Virus record (IMG/VR): IMGVR_UViG_3300025886_000131
Span: 1 to 26,739 of that record
Direction: 5' to 3' (one strand)
Length of the DNA: 26,739 nucleotides
Source of the DNA: a virus
Lineage: Duplodnaviria > Caudoviricetes
Shown here: in pieces, positions 4,223-21,659 of the stretch
Position numbering within the stretch: the first letter of the stretch is position 1
Layout of the letters: each line of letters begins with the position of its first letter
Translations under genes and position numbers: made by a program
The notes under the pieces: model-generated
What the model saw: only the letters and a program-made list of their open reading frames with translations
Database searches by the model: none
Told to the model about the DNA's origin: nothing

Positions 4223-4963
4223 TTATAATGTCTGCTGAACTAGGTATTGAGCTGGGTCAAAGTCTTTATCTTTATAGAATAATCTATACTGATCTATCGC
4301 TTGCTCCACTTTATCTTTACCTCTTTCTAAAAACTGAGGAGAACAATCGAATATACCTATATTACCAGTTAATTTATCCGCTGTTATGAATATCATATCC
4401 ATATCAAAGTACGTTGAATAAATGTAGGCCTGGCTGTCATAGTTATACTCTTTTGCACTATAAGCGAATTTATCTAAATTAGATGTTGTTTTAAGATCAA
4501 CCACTAATTGTTGTGTGTTATTCTTAATATCGCCTTTCAGTTTCCACCATTCACCACCTAGTTCTAATACTCCTGGCACTTCGTATTCAACATCAATATC
4601 TTGTATTAATTCTTGACATACTTTGTTAGCCATTAGCTTATCCCTTAAGACGGATAATGCATCCGCTTCTTTCTGTAATAAACACATTTTACCTTCTGAT
4701 AACTCTTTATATATTTTAGAGTTTCTAGTAGATGCATCTATTATTTTGTATTGTTCCAGTTTGTCTGGTTCAAGTACTAATGTATGAAAATAACCACCTT
4801 TTACTAAATTTGGATTACCTTCAATAGGTTTTTTGAAACTAAGTGGATCTCGCATTAAAGACCTTATATCTGAATTGCTTAAGTACTGTTTTCCAAAATC
4901 TCCATAATAATCGTCGTCATTCTCTAATCTTTTTAAAATTTCTAGCTTTTCTGTTTCTGTCAT
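4223..4963 (-). CDS. PD-(D/E)XK exonuclease (RecE/ExoVIII-like)
   Basis: LSNSDIR, GGYFHTLVLEP, KGDIK...VVDLKTTS, YDSQAYIY; adjacent to the ERF gene. Confidence 0.8.
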   Translation of the reverse strand: MTETEKLEILKRLENDDDYYGDFGKQYLSNSDIRSLMRDPLSFKKPIEGNPNLVKGGYFHTLVLEPDKLEQYKIIDASTRNSKIYKELSEGKMCLLQKEADALSVLRDKLMANKVCQELIQDIDVEYEVPGVLELGGEWWKLKGDIKNNTQQLVVDLKTTSNLDKFAYSAKEYNYDSQAYIYSTYFDMDMIFITADKLTGNIGIFDCSPQFLERGKDKVEQAIDQYRLFYKDKDFDPAQYLVQQTL

Positions 4964-5472
4964 AAAGTTTTTAGTATTTCAGCAGGTATTTCATACTTCC
5001 CTTTAATAGCTTCTAGACTTCCCCCTGCTTTTAGGAAAGCTTTAGCTTTTGTTAATGCTTGACCTTCTAATTTAGGCTTCACAGATTCTTTCTTACCGTG
5101 ATCTGCGTCTTGAGTGTCATCAATTAAGAATAGATTCCCTAACGCATATTTTTTACCATAACTAGAAGCACTACCGAATTTCTGCGGCATTTGCATACCC
5201 TTCTGAAGTAGATCTACTCCAACAACAGCTGTTGCATGTATAGCATCTACGCCGTCAGTAATAGTAGCTTTAGATTCTAGTATAGGAAAATCAGTGTTAG
5301 ATATTAATTCTTCGCTGATCGTTACCGATACGCCTAGTCTTAATAAAAAAGGTTTTGTTGCTTCAAGGATGTCTTCGGCGGACCTGAAGTTGTACTTGCC
5401 GAAAGAGTTAAATCTACTTTTTTTCGATTTGAACTCGGTTTGGATTGTTGCTAATTTTTCGTTTAATTTCAT
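4960..5472 (-). CDS. ERF-family single-strand annealing protein
   Basis: KSRFNSFGKYNFRSAEDILEA and GSASSYGKKYALGNLF motifs. Confidence 0.85.
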   Translation of the reverse strand: MKLNEKLATIQTEFKSKKSRFNSFGKYNFRSAEDILEATKPFLLRLGVSVTISEELISNTDFPILESKATITDGVDAIHATAVVGVDLLQKGMQMPQKFGSASSYGKKYALGNLFLIDDTQDADHGKKESVKPKLEGQALTKAKAFLKAGGSLEAIKGKYEIPAEILKTL

Positions 5473-5544: not shown

Positions 5545-6303
5545 TTAAAGATAATCAAGCACTTGCGTTGGGTCTACAGAGTCAATTAGTTTTTCTATAG
5601 CCTGCTTTTTAAGCTCTGAAACTCTCACATATCCGCTTGGTCCTTTAAAGTTTAACTCTTCAGCTATAGCTTTACCTGGCATTTTATCGCAGTCTAAACC
5701 GTAGCTTAAACGCAATACCTCATACTGAATATCTGTTAGATATTTTTTACATAAGCCAGTCAAGTAAGTATTCATCAACGCTATATTGTAAGGCTCTGAC
5801 GTGTCAGGTATATTCTCAGACCATTTCTCAGCAGTATCAGAATCTATATCTATACTTTTGAATACGGAATTAAAGAAGATAGCTACTAACGCTTTGTCCT
5901 TGCCAAAATCTTTTTGGATCTCGTTTAGCTTGTATTCAGGGATTCTCATATCGCCTCTATTAATGTTTATAGCGCGTCTAATTGTTCCTTTAATACGTTT
6001 AGCTAAGAATGATTTAATTGTCTTCTCAGGGTCGTCAGATTCAATCACTCTGTTAATATCTAGCTTATCAACCGCTTTAATTAAACCTATAGATCCTTCT
6101 TGTATTAAGTCATTAATACTTAGCACTCCGGATGCTTGATCAGAAGTTGAAAACTTTCTTGCTATATTTTCTACTAAAGGTAAAAACTTAACTATAAGTT
6201 CATCTCTAGTATACTCATCCCAAAACTTACCTTCTAAATTATATATAGATTTTTTTACGTCTTCTTTGTATCTTATATAGTTTTGTATATTATACTTCTT
6301 CAT
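5545..6303 (-). CDS. Phage-encoded RNA polymerase sigma-70-family factor
   Basis: Region 2 LPLVENIARKF...DLIQEGSIGLIKAVDK; region 4 EVLRLSYGL...AIAEEL...RVSELKKQAIEKL. Confidence 0.88.
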   Translation of the reverse strand: MKKYNIQNYIRYKEDVKKSIYNLEGKFWDEYTRDELIVKFLPLVENIARKFSTSDQASGVLSINDLIQEGSIGLIKAVDKLDINRVIESDDPEKTIKSFLAKRIKGTIRRAININRGDMRIPEYKLNEIQKDFGKDKALVAIFFNSVFKSIDIDSDTAEKWSENIPDTSEPYNIALMNTYLTGLCKKYLTDIQYEVLRLSYGLDCDKMPGKAIAEELNFKGPSGYVRVSELKKQAIEKLIDSVDPTQVLDYL

Positions 6304-6484
6304 ACTCGTCTATTATTTTAAAGGCTTTCGCCATTCTATTGTCATCAGCATAGTATATATTGCCGATCTTTGCCATCCACTCGTTAAATTCCTGTGTCAT
6401 AGTTGGTGGTATTGTATCATTATTGTCTTGCCAAGTGTCGGCATAACAATCAAAGTTATTTTCAAATATTTGTCCTATATCCAT
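6290..6484 (-). CDS. Hypothetical protein
   Basis: 64 aa ORF overlapping the sigma start, same strand. Confidence 0.5.
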   Translation of the reverse strand: MDIGQIFENNFDCYADTWQDNNDTIPPTMTQEFNEWMAKIGNIYYADDNRMAKAFKIIDEYEEV

Positions 6485-6606
6485 AATTCTATTTATTTTA
6501 ATCCGTTAAAAAACTAATCTTACCCAAACCGTTGCACAGATCTACTATCTATTTATTTAATACACAAGCTTTTTTTACTTTATTTCATCACCAACATTAA
6601 AACGTT

Positions 6607-6657
6607 GGTCAACAGTTGATAAGAAGCATTACACGCTTTCTTATCTTGGTGTTAGCC
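6607..6657 (+). repeat. attC-like site 1
   Basis: GGTCAAC agtt GATAAGAAGC..GCTTTCTTATC ttggt GTTAGCC; one extra unpaired base in the stem. Confidence 0.65.
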
Positions 6658-6867
6658 ACAATTAATTAATTCTATTAATCTATCTGCAAGCCATTCTTGG
6701 TCTTCGTGGTCTTCTATGTATTTAAGGTCAACTTCTTTTAATTCTGTAATTAACAGTTCACGTTGTTGGCTAACATCAAATAAAACCAATAACTCATCTA
6801 CTGCTTCTTTAGGTTCTAAATGTCCACTTTCAACTTTACCTACTATTTGTTCAAATTTATCTTTCAT
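6652..6867 (-). CDS. Cassette-associated hypothetical protein
   Basis: Starts in the loop of site 2, crosses GTTAGCC (LFDVSQQR) and stops on the TAA of GGCTAAC. Confidence 0.6.
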   Translation of the reverse strand: MKDKFEQIVGKVESGHLEPKEAVDELLVLFDVSQQRELLITELKEVDLKYIEDHEDQEWLADRLIELINCG

Positions 6868-6900
6868 ATCGTTACTTGTTTTATCTGTATTACGTTAGGC
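6768..6900 (+). repeat. attC-like site 2
   Basis: GGCTAAC atc AAATAAAACCAATAAC..GTTACTTGTTTTATCT gtattac GTTAGGC (13/16 complementary). Confidence 0.65.
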
Positions 6901-7056
6901 AACATATACTTCTGTGTATGTTATTGCAATAAACGGTATTAAGTAAATCTTACTTTTAAATTTGCACTCTCCTTTTACACCTACATTACTTTTAACATAT
7001 CCAAAGCCTACGTTAAAAATTGGACTAAATGTTATTTGTTTGTCTACTAATTTCAT
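6895..7056 (-). CDS. Cassette hypothetical protein (53 aa)
   Basis: MKLVDKQITFSPIFNVGFGY...TEVYVA, bounded by GTTAGGCAAC/GTTGCCTAAC; stop lies inside GCCTAAC. Confidence 0.6.
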   Translation of the reverse strand: MKLVDKQITFSPIFNVGFGYVKSNVGVKGECKFKSKIYLIPFIAITYTEVYVA

Positions 7057-7065
7057 AATTACGTT

Positions 7066-7160
7066 GCCTAACAATGGCTAAAGTTAATAGCCTCGCAAGG
7101 TCTTGTTATAATTTGATGGTTAATATTAAAGGCTACTAACCTTAGCCTCGTCCGATAAAA
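7066..7160 (+). repeat. attC-like site 3 (degenerate core)
   Basis: GCCTAAC aat GGCTAAAGTTAATAGCC..GGCTACTAACCTTAGCC tcgtcc GATAAAA (15/17 complementary). Confidence 0.6.
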
Positions 7161-7210
7161 AACATTAAAACGATTTTTTATACTATACGTTGTAAAACAT
7201 TAAAACGATT

Positions 7211-7461
7211 TTACAACAAAGTATATAAATAATGCTACATTCCGTAACTATCATCCATCATCTTTTCAACCGCTTCCATTCCTTTAATAATTTTCTTAAA
7301 TGGTTCATCTAATAATTTTGGGTCTAAATGAAATATATGACCGTATTCCTCTATCTTGTAATAGAAGTCAATTATTTCACTCATTTCCGCTTTCTTTATT
7401 TCTCTTATATCTGACATATCGTTTTATTTAATCCGCACTATTCATATACTAAGCGTTATAT
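7211..7461 (+). repeat. attC-like site 4 with an ORF in its loop
   Basis: TTACAAC aaa GTATATAAATAATGC..GCACTATTCATATAC taagc GTTATAT (13/15 complementary). Confidence 0.65.
7235..7417 (-). CDS. Hypothetical protein (60 aa) inside the loop of attC-like site 4
   Basis: ORF track; lies between the two arms. Confidence 0.6.
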   Translation of the reverse strand: MSDIREIKKAEMSEIIDFYYKIEEYGHIFHLDPKLLDEPFKKIIKGMEAVEKMMDDSYGM

Positions 7462-7671
7462 GCAATTAAGCAAATCCGTTTCTATTTGGTTTATTTCGTC
7501 AAGGGTTCTGTTCAATGGTAAGTACTTTCTATGTGGTTCGTTATTAAGGTTGTCAATTTCAAACCACTTCCATTCATAAATCGCATCTTTAGGGTCTTTA
7601 TAGTTAGGTGGTACAAATTCATTTTGCTCATCCTTAACACCCCAAAGTCCGTTCTTTTTAAATAATTTCAT
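7456..7671 (-). CDS. Cassette hypothetical protein (71 aa)
   Basis: Likely start MKLFKKNGLWGVKDE; bounded by GTTATATGC/GCATATAAC; stop lies in the TAAC box. Confidence 0.6.
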   Translation of the reverse strand: MKLFKKNGLWGVKDEQNEFVPPNYKDPKDAIYEWKWFEIDNLNNEPHRKYLPLNRTLDEINQIETDLLNCI

Positions 7672-7690
7672 TTCAAAATTGCTTAAAAGC

Positions 7691-7785
7691 ATATAACACC
7701 GTATATAGTTTATATGCCTAGTTAATATTCGTTTTAATTCAAAGTGTAGTTTAATGGCACACAAACCATATACAACACGTTGTAA
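7691..7785 (+). repeat. attC-like site 5
   Basis: ATATAAC acc GTATATAGTTTATATGCC..GGCACACAAACCATATAC aacac GTTGTAA (15/18 complementary). Confidence 0.7.
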
Positions 7786-7789
7786 ACAA

Positions 7790-8038
7790 TTACATACCGT
7801 TGTATATTTGGTGCATTTTTACTGCTTCATTTCCATAACCATTAATTGCTAACTTATTTGCCAACTTAAATACTTCGGTATGCAACTGCTCGCTATCGCT
7901 TTCACAACTATGCGTATAATTAATAGCTTCTAATAGCTCTTTTGCAATGTCAGTTATGTCTTCTTGTCTAAAAAAAGAACAGTTATTCTCATTAAATCCG
8001 TGTTCTTCAAATATATTTATTATTTTTTGTAGTTCCAT
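7790..8038 (-). CDS. Cassette-associated hypothetical protein
   Basis: Starts in the loop of site 6 and crosses the arm and GTT box (AINYTHSC). Confidence 0.6.
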   Translation of the reverse strand: MELQKIINIFEEHGFNENNCSFFRQEDITDIAKELLEAINYTHSCESDSEQLHTEVFKLANKLAINGYGNEAVKMHQIYNGM

Positions 8039-8094
8039 TTTTGTTAATTTTAATTATTATTCAACGCTACTAATCATACACTTTCAAGTTGTAA
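7902..8094 (+). repeat. attC-like site 6
   Basis: TCACAAC tat GCGTATAATTAATAGC..GCTACTAATCATACAC tttcaa GTTGTAA (13/16 complementary). Confidence 0.65.
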
Positions 8095-8098
8095 GTAA

Positions 8099-8290
8099 TT
8101 ACAAGCGTTCTATTATTTCATCTAATTGGTCAGTGTTGTGTAATTGGCAGTTATTATAAGCGAAATCCTTTAAATCTTCAACCGCTTGTAACTTCCCTTC
8201 GGTATTGCTAACAACGGGTAAAATTAATTCTTTAACTACCTTTATAAAAGCCTCCTTAGTCATTGCCATAACAACATCGCCATCTACCAT
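8099..8290 (-). CDS. Cassette-associated hypothetical protein
   Basis: Crosses the half-site at 8206-8227 (LILPVVSN). Confidence 0.55.
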   Translation of the reverse strand: MVDGDVVMAMTKEAFIKVVKELILPVVSNTEGKLQAVEDLKDFAYNNCQLHNTDQLDEIIERL

Positions 8291-8907
8291 AGTTGTTGGT
8301 TTAGTAATTCTTTTTCTTTTTTAAGTTCATTACTCATGTTTCTATATATAGTTCTGCTAGAACACTTTAAAGTTTCAGCTAACTTAACCATAGTTATAAT
8401 TTCGTTTTCGTGGTTAATAAAAATCATAGCATCGTATATTTCACTGCTGGATATTTTAGATCTACCTACTAGCTTACCTACTATAGAGAGCTTTTGTCGC
8501 ATATCAAGACCGCTATAATCCTTAAAGATTACTTTACGTAACTTATTAGGAGGAGGTGTTTCGAGATCCATTAAAGACACATCGTATATCATGCTTTGTA
8601 GTAGTTGCTCTGAAACTTTAAACGTAACAAATCCTGCTTTCTTATTACATATATACTTAGACATCGCTTCAAAGCCTTCTTGATCCATCTGAGGATTCAA
8701 GTACCATAATACATACAAATGCCATTTAAGACTCCTATATGTATTGATTTTAGCTTTAGAATTAAATAGTGTATAGCATTGACGTGTACCCGCTTCGTAG
8801 TAATTACCCCAATCAAATACTTCTGTTGGTTTGTCATCTACTGGATCACATCTATAGAATATCCTATGACGATCTAAATATGATGTATCTCTTGTATAAT
8901 GCGACAT
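8284..8907 (-). CDS. DNA-binding protein with C-terminal helix-turn-helix
   Basis: ITMVKLAETLKCSSRTIYRNM HTH pattern; start codon lies inside a 52 bp palindrome. Confidence 0.65.
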   Translation of the reverse strand: MSHYTRDTSYLDRHRIFYRCDPVDDKPTEVFDWGNYYEAGTRQCYTLFNSKAKINTYRSLKWHLYVLWYLNPQMDQEGFEAMSKYICNKKAGFVTFKVSEQLLQSMIYDVSLMDLETPPPNKLRKVIFKDYSGLDMRQKLSIVGKLVGRSKISSSEIYDAMIFINHENEIITMVKLAETLKCSSRTIYRNMSNELKKEKELLNQQLW

Positions 8908-14288: not shown

Positions 14289-14504
14289 TTATTTGATCGG
14301 TTCGTTGTAGTGATTCCATAGATTAGTGTGTGAATGGTTTTTGCCTTTACCGCTTGCACCCTTCGACTCCATCTTCCAAGATTTATATTGTTTGTCGGTC
14401 ATTTGACCACATTCTCCACCTTGTTTAACAACATTGTTGCGGTGTATAGCATTCGCCTTCTTCTGGTTTTCAACGTATTCGCACGCTTCTTTCATAGTCA
14501 TCAT
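14289..14504 (-). CDS. Hypothetical early protein
   Basis: ORF track; ATGA overlap. Confidence 0.6.
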   Translation of the reverse strand: MMTMKEACEYVENQKKANAIHRNNVVKQGGECGQMTDKQYKSWKMESKGASGKGKNHSHTNLWNHYNEPIK

Positions 14505-14695
14505 AGTATTCTTTTTAGTTGTTCCTTAATTAACATTATATCTTCGTCGCTTACTAAAACTTCTTCATCGCCTGGTCGATCGTGTATAGTATCGTACATT
14601 GCATCATGAAAGTAGTTACCTACTATCTTATCTAAGCGATTAGCGATCTCTTTAATTTCTTCCCAGGTTAATTTGGTTGTGTTTATATTTCCCAT
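14501..14695 (-). CDS. Hypothetical early protein
   Basis: ORF track. Confidence 0.6.
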   Translation of the reverse strand: MGNINTTKLTWEEIKEIANRLDKIVGNYFHDAMYDTIHDRPGDEEVLVSDEDIMLIKEQLKRIL

Positions 14696-19861: not shown

Positions 19862-21415
19862 ATGTCAAACCAAATTGTAAAAAATCTCACCTTCGGTGAG
19901 AAGGCAAAGACCAATGTATTTAAAGGTATCGAAAAGCTTACAAAAGCTGTTAGTTCTACCTTAGGAGCCAGTGGAAAATGCGTATTACTAGAAAACGAAT
20001 TAGGTAAACCTGTTATTACCAAAGATGGTGTAACGGTTGCAAATTCAATAACACTTAGAGATCCTATTGAAAATATGGGTGCAACGCTTCTAAAGGAAGC
20101 AGCTAGGCAAACTGTTAAAGAAGCTGGAGATGGAACCACAACAGCTACAGTCTTAGCTCACTCAATATTATTAGAAGCATACGCTGCTAAAAACAGTGGA
20201 TCAAGGGAAATGAAGGAAGGTGTCGAATCGGCTACTAAAAAAGTAATTGAGTATCTAGAAAAGCTAGCGGTACCTGTTGAAGGAGATATGGTAAACCATG
20301 TTGCAACAATTTCTTCTAACAACGATAAAGAGCTTGGTAATGTTATTGCTGAGGCTTTTAAACAAGTGGGTAAGAATGGAGTTGTTACTATGGAGGTTTC
20401 AAATGATAGCGAAACAAGTTACGAAGTAATAAATGGAGCTGCAATAGATAAACCTTTAAAGAACTTCCACTTTATCACAGACGAAAGTAAAAAAGAAGCT
20501 GTACTTGAAAATCCATTAGTATTACTAGTAGAAAACAAAATAGAAAACATACGTAAGATACAAAGTGTTTTAGAGTATGTTATAAAAAACAATGAGCCTT
20601 TATTAATTATTGGCGAAGCAGATGAGCAAGTAGTATCCGCTTTAGCTATGAATAAAAAGAAAGGTAATATCAAAGTCAATATTATTGACACTCCTGACTT
20701 TGGAATATACAGAAAAGAAAAGCTTCAGGATATAGCTCTCTTAACAGGTGCTACGGTCGTGAATGAAGACCTTGGTGATGACTTAGATATGATAGAGGTA
20801 GAAATGCTAGGAAAGTGTTTAAAGTCCATTACAAACGACCAGGAGACCATTATACAAGTAGGAGATACATCTATTAAAGTTCAAGAAGTTATCGATTCGA
20901 TACAAGATGACATTAAAAAAGAAACTTTACCAGGTAAGCTTAATAGATTAGAAAAAAGATTAGGTTTATTATCTTGTAAAGTAGCTGTTATAAAAGTAGG
21001 TGCAAGCTCAGAGGTTGAGCTTAAAGAAAAGCAAGATAGAGTTGAAGATGCGATGTGTGCTACAAAAGCTGCTATTAAAGAAGGTATTGTACCAGGTGGT
21101 GGTATTGCTTTATTAAATGCTTCTACTTATGTTAAACCAAGCAACGATAATGAAAAAGTTTTACTAGAAGCTATTAAAGCGCCTTATTTAACTATACTAA
21201 AAAACGCTGGTTTAGAAGAAGTATATCCGAAAGGAAAAGGCAAAGGAATTAATGTAGTTACCGGTAAAGACGTTAATATGATTAAGTCTGGTATTATTGA
21301 TCCTTTATTAGTTACTAAAAGCGCATTAAAGAACGCAGCATCAGTAGCTACAACTATATTGTCAACAGATTGTGTAATCAACAACTTAAGAGTAGAAGAT
21401 GAAAGCAATAGGTAG
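19862..21415 (+). CDS. groEL: Chaperonin GroEL (phage-encoded)
   Basis: ITKDGVTVA, AGDGTTTATVLA, GIVPGGGIAL, GIIDP..V..SAL.NAASVA. Confidence 0.95.
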   Translation: MSNQIVKNLTFGEKAKTNVFKGIEKLTKAVSSTLGASGKCVLLENELGKPVITKDGVTVANSITLRDPIENMGATLLKEAARQTVKEAGDGTTTATVLAHSILLEAYAAKNSGSREMKEGVESATKKVIEYLEKLAVPVEGDMVNHVATISSNNDKELGNVIAEAFKQVGKNGVVTMEVSNDSETSYEVINGAAIDKPLKNFHFITDESKKEAVLENPLVLLVENKIENIRKIQSVLEYVIKNNEPLLIIGEADEQVVSALAMNKKKGNIKVNIIDTPDFGIYRKEKLQDIALLTGATVVNEDLGDDLDMIEVEMLGKCLKSITNDQETIIQVGDTSIKVQEVIDSIQDDIKKETLPGKLNRLEKRLGLLSCKVAVIKVGASSEVELKEKQDRVEDAMCATKAAIKEGIVPGGGIALLNASTYVKPSNDNEKVLLEAIKAPYLTILKNAGLEEVYPKGKGKGINVVTGKDVNMIKSGIIDPLLVTKSALKNAASVATTILSTDCVINNLRVEDESNR

Positions 21416-21659
21416 AAACTTGATAATAAAGATCATTAAAGAAGCAACTACTAAAACAAAAGGTGGTTTAATACTTAATGAAAAAAGTAGAGAAGATATA
21501 AGATATCGTAAAGCTACTATTGTATCCGTTGGAACAGATGTTGAAGGTGTAACGAAAGACGATACAATCTATTTTGACAGAAACGCTGGACACGGAATAG
21601 AAATAGACAACGAGAAACTACACGTTATAAAGAATCAAGATGTAGTAGTCGTATTATGA
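21399..21659 (+). CDS. groES: Co-chaperonin GroES
   Basis: KTKGGLIL mobile loop, ATIVSVG, cpn10-like size; adjacent to groEL. Confidence 0.9.
   Translation: MKAIGRNLIIKIIKEATTKTKGGLILNEKSREDIRYRKATIVSVGTDVEGVTKDDTIYFDRNAGHGIEIDNEKLHVIKNQDVVVVL

Follow-up and report, generated by a model that had tools for sequence, protein, structure and literature searches.

Integrons (IntI, attI and attC, in class 1 and sedentary chromosomal forms) are known for the shuffling of whole genes. In the mosaic exchange of phage genomes, short conserved boundary or linker stretches guide single-strand annealing proteins, and the boundaries lie between genes. Clusters of attC sites without an integrase (CALINs) occur in virulent phages, e.g., Polaribacter phage P12002L (Qi et al. 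2023, PMC9892861); the accessible text of that paper treats the cassettes as whole genes and describes no reversed polarity, loop-coded N-terminal halves or chimeras. The shuffling of modules through attC is otherwise found, in the literature located, only as an engineering proposal: according to the accessible part of Nivina et al. 2020 (PMC7439510), a synthetic attC site in a coding sequence doubles as a peptide linker, and shuffling of modules by the integrase is proposed. Outside subscription papers and bioRxiv supplements, the literature yielded no natural half-gene shuffling and no account of the host platform described below, and the available parts of PMC8565304 and PMC8618304 contain nothing on this system. 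Phage attC clusters and engineered coding attC sites are known, and natural half-gene shuffling appears to be new.

The DNA analyzed here (the window, 26,739 nucleotides) is the whole of a 26.7-kb viral contig, IMGVR_UViG_3300025886_000131, from a Flavobacteria-type phage with genes that include a sigma factor, an ERF-family protein and an exonuclease. The cassette array of this phage (Table 1) resembles integrons in its R''/L''/L'/R' hairpin sites with unequal spacers and complementary flanking boxes, and the related bacterial loci resemble them in possessing a recombinase, a first junction that lacks a hairpin and an array of promoterless genes. It differs in that the host enzyme falls below the integron integrase cut-off, aligns with the integrase model in two separate pieces and points the same way as the cassettes, and in that the phage genes occupy the opposite strand, begin within loops that reach ~200 nt and consist of halves that uncouple at R''. 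In common with the CALINs of virulent phages, its attC-like sites cluster without an integrase; P12002L shares site DNA with the array, and P12002L_0037 has the same layout. A cassette gene of an attC cluster is expected whole, on the top strand and outside the site, whereas the phage ORFs, coded on the opposite strand, either cross the sites or fill them. Compared with the synthetic coding sites (as described in the accessible part of PMC7439510), which are engineered and short, the arrangement is natural and antisense, with the N-terminal half in the loop and the joint at R''. As in phage mosaic exchange, an annealing protein (ERF) is encoded, but the joint lies inside an ORF, at a recombination hairpin. 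The array works like an integron yet departs from the definition both in its cassette layout and in the recombinases of its host relatives, and is a real, new form of integron cassette. By a modest balance of probability, it consists of integron-like cassettes of Flavobacteriaceae that are read antisense by the phage, the gene halves being re-paired in frame by a tyrosine recombinase of the host type that would act at both feet of the site.

Table 1. Features of the array and of the replication genes next to it, by window position
Feature	Position	Strand	Remarks
PDDEXK-like exonuclease	4223..4963	-	adjoins ERF; PF12684, E 5.5e-15
ERF-family single-strand annealing protein	4960..5472	-	PF04404, E 1.4e-26; candidate short-homology engine
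64-aa ORF created by the insertion	6290..6484	-	front of loop gene fused in frame to a small gene that trails the 207-aa gene in relatives
Inserted cassette array	6398..8287		1,890 bp = 630 codons; opened within one site loop
L' arm and R' box	6512..6537	+	missing half of half-site 8206..8229; 12/14 arm bases complementary
Short attC-like site	6607..6657	+	loop without ORF; fold z -2.7 and -3.1
71-aa chimeric ORF	6652..6867	-	N-half coded in loop, then arm, GTT (Val32), linker SQQRELL and C-cargo; stops on TAAC of R'
attC-like site	6768..6900	+	loop holds start and N-half of ORF 6652..6867; arm-pair scan, fold, box pairing
53-aa ORF	6895..7056	-	wholly within a body; stop on TAAC; no family match
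Two fused sites	7066..7195	+	fused at ~7149, boxes between them lost; fold shows two hairpins
Empty 29-nt mini-body	7189..7217		two matching boxes around hairpin tip CGTTTTAATG (- strand)
251-nt attC-like site	7211..7461	+	whole gene in loop; arm-pair scan
60-aa ORF	7235..7417	-	wholly in loop, between arms of site 7211..7461
71-aa ORF	7456..7671	-	wholly within a body; stop on TAAC
95-nt attC-like site	7691..7785	+	loop non-coding; top score in arm-pair scan
82-aa chimeric ORF	7790..8038	-	N-half, then arm AINYTHS, GTT (residues 44-45), linker and C-cargo
attC-like site	7902..8094	+	loop holds N-half of ORF 7790..8038; arm matches host arm
63-aa chimeric ORF	8099..8290	-	N-half shortened by insertion; crosses half-site 8206..8229
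Half-site	8206..8229	+	R'' box and L'' arm

The sites read R'' AAC ... R' GTT on the + strand. Like attC sites, they have inverted R''/R' boxes with AAC/GTT cores, inner arms and unequal spacers; like a CALIN, the array comprises six whole sites and one split site in a single orientation, with no integrase nearby. Spacers in the two halves of the split site measure 5 and 3 nt and match those of the host. When the entire window is scanned for AAC-arm...arm-GTT pairs, six + strand pairs reach a score of at least 10, and four of them, including the two best, are array sites; at a score of at least 8, there are 50 pairs compared to 28-39 in five block shuffles. Folding of whole sites is modest (e.g., z of 0.2 for 6768-6900 and -1.2 for 7691-7785, - strand). 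Because the long sites fold no better than shuffled sequences, the case is built on the relatives and on the pairing of the boxes. Boxes on either side of a body are complementary at 7 of 7 bases in four of the seven window bodies and at 6, 5 and 4 bases in the rest, and this pairing is stronger proof than folding that the sites are real. Among the relatives, the site at 7066 retains an intact R' in the locus L129 and in a contig of run X7, and the interior of site 7691-7785 is common to L106 and Cellulophaga phage phi39:1. Entire units recur as well: 7455-7781 (ORF 7456-7671 with its own site) with other flanks in X8, 7187-7460 (site 7211-7461) with different flanks in the X7 contig, and 7455-7698 (ORF 7456-7671) in X21, with a different site after R''. 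The two-arm pattern of site 7691-7785 has no match in bacterial genomes, and the window has none in Rfam. The arms are of one length yet occupy two reading frames across the genes (sites 6768-6900 and 7902-8094), and the host-type arm has a stop in the third frame.

Every array ORF is on the - strand, the same as the flanking genes. The sequence-only reading had placed one ORF (7235-7417) entirely inside a loop, had two others (6652-6867 and 7790-8038) start in a loop and continue through the arm and GTT, and had a fourth (8099-8290) cross a half-site; all its coordinates agree with the window sequence, and the partner of the half-site has been located at 6512-6537. It was also right that the TAA of the TAAC box serves as the stop codon of three ORFs (6895-7056, 7456-7671 and 6652-6867); ORFs 7790-8038 and 8099-8290 stop 10 nt ahead of TAAC. 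Cultured phages carry genes of this kind, namely phi13:2 gp029, QIG62300 of Tenacibaculum phage JQ and P12002L_0037, and scans of viral sequences with the 71-aa ORF 6652-6867 identify this phage alone. In RNA runs, array contigs are represented only by short or divergent pieces (share 0.05-0.07), which speak neither for nor against transcription. Most likely, the array encodes small accessory proteins that belong to the replication operon.

The genes that flank the array, one for a 207-aa protein (8284-8907) and the other for the sigma factor, are at most 50 nt apart in 34 of 77 related phage loci among the matches listed, which identifies the array as an insertion; in other related loci, again among the matches listed, small genes lie between the two. 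One related locus, L003, has the junction without an array, and the empty allele is present in the public runs X3 and X8, with position 6397 joined to 8288 through 8 shared letters. Both alleles, empty and filled, occur in the X3 sample. The array ends have 8 bases in common (6398-6405 and 8288-8295), and the simplest reading is that the array, which was opened inside one loop, would have come as a circle. Relatives of ORF 6290-6484, which was created by this event, align with residues 25-64 only, and its front is joined to the N-terminal half of ORF 8099-8290 in the proteins P0180-P0182. A scan for the unsplit insertion junction gave a single match, L264, due to chance, so that the unsplit loop gene is known solely from these proteins. 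Another locus (L030:6620-8800) has a separate, unrelated 2.2-kb cassette array, seemingly of the same build, at the equivalent position, with the 207-aa gene on one side and the sigma gene on the other.

The arm of site 7902-8094 is also found in ~410 stretches of bacterial genomes, almost all of them from Flavobacteriaceae among the 80 matches listed. The gene next to these host sites opposes the phage direction in 94 of 100 cases, and host bodies contain a gene on the strand equal to window + in 137 of 139. Spacers of 3 and 5-6 nt characterize 256 of the 257 host site matches, and 130 of 157 host bodies have complementary flanking boxes. In five Flavobacteriaceae chromosomes (L130, L148, L151, L184 and L193), a tyrosine recombinase of 376-404 aa is encoded upstream of the array, co-oriented with the cassettes, and is followed by a GTT box that, by eye, is not preceded by an attC arm and accordingly resembles attI; a matching R'' is seen in three of the five. 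Short palindromes precede the first GTT box of the host platforms. The four host recombinases tested against TIGR02249 score 187-216 bits, all below the cut-off of 265, and match in two stretches, so that they likely lack the IntI-specific insertion, which is tied to single-strand recombination (PMC7790495, in its accessible text). Of 101 genomes sampled within a single host family, 55 encode relatives of the host recombinase at E 1e-60 or better; the accessible part of the IntegronFinder 2.0 preprint (10.1101/2022.02.28.482270) records one complete integron in Bacteroidetes, in Salinibacter.

The first host cassette after the recombinase begins at the other GTT, not at the one that phage ORFs cross. 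Given this start and the opposite strand of the host genes, routine exchange would cut at the stop-codon TAAC and move the chimeric gene whole. The canonical crossover is thus predicted to be G|TT on window +, i.e., the TAAC at phage stop codons, and a chimera would require a further exchange, located at R'' or in the linker that follows. The sequence-only reading had the phage coding strand as the top strand, which the host data rule out; the GTT that it took for the crossover point is R'' read antisense. Of its proposal that cassette exchange at GTT swaps C-terminal halves, the chimeric outcome stands and the polarity is reversed. Published experiments with IntI1 fit the host polarity if the listed oligonucleotide is the top strand, which is our own reading of the accessible text of PMC9892861: a P12002L site listed in host polarity recombined through the bottom strand only, with no top-strand recombinants, and a Polaribacter phage site listed in the direction of the phage genes did not recombine. 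In Cellulophaga phage phi13:2, a tyrosine recombinase (gp038, L268:8662-9948) is encoded just after the array; it was considered as the engine and rejected, since its identity with the host enzyme is 23% and it lies on the opposite strand relative to the sites.

Comparison of homologs shows that the halves of the crossing ORFs have separate histories. With a half called shared at 60% identity or more while the other half is below 35%, 164 of the 180 non-self matches of the three crossing ORFs share one half only, and just two are full length, which disposes of the possibility, raised in the sequence-only reading, that homologs align throughout with no junction at the GTT box. For ORF 6652-6867, the 39 matches include 25 N-only, 6 C-only, 2 full-length and 6 other; for ORF 7790-8038, 81 of the 109 non-self matches are C-only, 20 N-only and 8 other, with none full length; and for ORF 8099-8290, there are 29 C-only and 3 N-only matches among 32. 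All breakpoints estimated for ORF 6652-6867 fall between residues 26 and 43; among its 25 N-only matches, 10 break within two residues of the GTT valine and 12 at the end of the seven-residue linker. In the 82-aa ORF 7790-8038, the arm is retained in 46 of the 81 C-only matches. One cargo follows ~54 different N-cores (78 proteins), and two N-halves precede ~27 and ~20 different cargoes. At the DNA level, the locus L085 is 94.7% identical over exactly 7904-8090, the site interior from AAC to GTT, and differs on either side of it. The control consisted of 17 small ORFs outside the array, which produced 236 matches, none of the half type (the matches come from neighbouring loci of related phages, a set that leans towards orthologs). 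Chimeras with re-paired halves exist, and the same N-half is joined in frame to unrelated C-halves, and vice versa, at the GTT-coded residue or up to 7 codons past it, as had been anticipated; the enzyme behind them would be of the host type. In the protein P0132, the C-cargo of ORF 7790-8038 seems to be fused in frame to a member of a small gene family that this phage encodes outside the array (window 14501-14695), so that cargoes may also join ordinary genes.

The halves uncouple at R'' as often as at R'. Among 108 phage sites, counted without the overlapping pair L277/L278, the same cargo has a different N-core in 10 of 12 disjoint pairs and the same N-core has a different cargo in 9 of 10 pairs; across R', the corresponding numbers are 10/10 and 4/5. 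The arm stays with the N-core (0-3 mismatches in 19) but not with the cargo (in 9 of 10, the arms differ by 6-11 mismatches), which places the break at GTT or in the linker. Where linkers are shared, homologous exchange can operate. One 23-nt linker is found behind 21 arm classes, and one arm ahead of 10 linker types. Since arms and linkers assort freely, a cut at GTT is needed, and homology alone cannot start new pairs. Integron-type exchange at the G|TT of R' is evident from the recurring units 7455-7781 and 7187-7460 and from 10 of 52 DNA ends at R' (background 4.1%), in a sample chosen by arm from which matches shorter than 45 nt were dropped. The same end test places 13 ends at the inner box, 26 elsewhere and 3 at R'', the last being no more than the 4.1% background and lending R'' no support.

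For the chimeras, a recombinase that acts at both feet with ERF as helper is somewhat probable and is preferred to ERF acting alone. First, the usual exchange at R', the TAAC of the stop codons, would move the whole chimeric gene and build arrays. Second, exchange at R'', the GTT within the ORF, would leave an existing N-half and arm in place and supply them with a new body; in integron terms, this would be a top-strand reaction, and for IntI1, cutting of the top strand at R'' occurs at a 1,000-10,000-fold lower rate, which rises on loss of the extrahelical bases (PMC5027507, accessible part). Third, the phage ERF would add exchanges in the shared arms and linkers of 20-25 nt, and may have inserted the array via 8-13 matching bases. 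Finally, the frame would be kept by the single arm length, with arm frame and linker length coupled and the second GTT in the same codon phase, and selection would remove the out-of-frame remainder. A search for PF00589 tyrosine recombinases in five phage records (two complete, one a longer contig of this phage) gave no match, and the recombinase is therefore assumed to be supplied in trans.

A possible, though distinctly less probable, explanation is that the recombinase cuts R' only and moves whole genes, with chimeras made by ERF/exonuclease annealing in the shared arms and linkers as boundary sequences. The two enzymes are encoded 1-2 kb from the array, which itself entered through 8 shared bases inside a loop. 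The arm retained in over half of the C-only matches of the 82-aa ORF, the 13 DNA ends at the end of shared linkers and a similar number on the arm's loop side, among the ends located elsewhere, are what annealing predicts; many breakpoints in these positions fit homology and count against a recombinase at R''. The inactivity of IntI1 on the site listed in phage direction (PMC9892861, accessible text) points the same way, and the lack of top-strand recombinants from the other site likewise counts against exchange at R''. Yet annealing cannot make the new arm-linker pairs, which are many and share little beyond GTT: as a case of short-homology mosaicism, the locus has ERF and the 8-base insertion joint, but the arm-linker pairs need a cut at GTT. 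Also at odds with annealing are the N-only matches of ORF 6652-6867 that break next to the GTT valine and a host body in L174/L176 that is 96% identical, with an unrelated downstream site. A recombinase at both feet, helped by ERF, thus remains the preferred origin of the chimeras.

The bodies themselves are nested. In the phage direction, a body consists of GTT, linker, inner GTT, cargo, AAT, 7 nt and AAC. Of 40 sites, 31 had a body that could be parsed, and in 30 of these the inner GTT keeps one codon phase. Each cargo has an inverted repeat of its own at its ends, with means of 6.9 and 8.9 bp compared to 3.5 and 3.7 for cross pairs; in host bodies, the 13-nt outer repeat is present and this cargo-end extension is absent. 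The hairpin tip CGTTTTAATG, at window positions 6595, 7163 and 7198 (- strand), is found in site interiors and in empty bodies; across 43 viral loci, 44 copies point in the phage direction and none in the reverse. This nesting, the cargo-end repeats and the empty mini-body 7189-7217 with its directional tip would suit an origin of the cassettes by repeated capture of DNA into empty tips or mini-bodies, so that loops and cargoes were built there with little later re-pairing. Such an origin is unlikely: halves that are 95-100% identical occur with unrelated partners, so that re-pairing is recent and repeated, and no capture enzyme was found. The preferred model of re-pairing by a recombinase at both feet does not account for the nesting, which may be a trace of the way in which cassettes form.

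Where a viral site has the arm of 7902-8094 and sufficient flanking sequence, an ORF runs from a loop ATG through the box in 30 of 31 cases, the site of the window included, and in none in the other five frames, whereas only 2 of 112 host sites have an ORF through the box. With the linker of ORF 6652-6867, 58 of 60 viral sites are in frame, and the two other frames have none. Taken together, the frame is open in 88 of 91 phage sites; in both sets, the motif itself closes one alternative frame. In small samples, pN/pS is 0.09 for C-halves (3 disjoint pairs) and 0.47 for N-cores (8 pairs, p 0.012). In the loop ORF 7235-7417, 5 of 28 synonymous and 4 of 152 non-synonymous sites are changed, a ratio of 0.15 from one variant contig. 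These patterns of selection suggest that the ORFs are translated and that the N-cores are weakly constrained; the C-cargo is likely to be the selected part, the loop giving a translation start and a loosely constrained leader. That the ORFs are untranslated by-products of AT-rich site DNA, with half-sharing of no consequence for proteins, is very improbable given the single open frame of phage but not host sites and the excess of synonymous changes, even though the array ORFs have no match in PHROGs or Pfam and the 82-aa ORF has no feature match in the ESM Atlas, uninformative structure rows and a weak predicted structure (pLDDT 0.60).

More tentatively, an undescribed integron-like recombinase of Bacteroidota, without the IntI helix, might cut both hairpin feet, and phages might have turned it into a combinatorial generator of genes. 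N-halves encoded in loops, linkers that preserve the frame and cargoes that end in stems of their own would then be assembled, much as V(D)J segments are, into small proteins by the thousands, with the nested bodies and empty tips as intermediates in the making of cassettes. Related marine phages of Flavobacteria join the halves in dozens of in-frame pairings; should this come about by recombination at the site foot, as is likely, the site would be a natural protein-shuffling device. If new proteins do arise at the sites in nature, this would account for some of the many small orphan genes in these phages. The findings also point to a class of recombinases that integron-integrase models score below the cut-off, and cassette creation becomes testable with the cultured phages Cellulophaga phi13:2 and Polaribacter P12002L. 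In three cultured phages (L265, L266 and L267), DNA methyltransferase genes lie in or beside the arrays, apparently as whole-gene bodies. Elsewhere in the window, the + strand ORFs at 19862-21659 presumably encode GroEL- and GroES-like proteins, and a repeat family, D1, has eleven copies of 56 nt between 4171 and 16909, located ahead of - strand genes.
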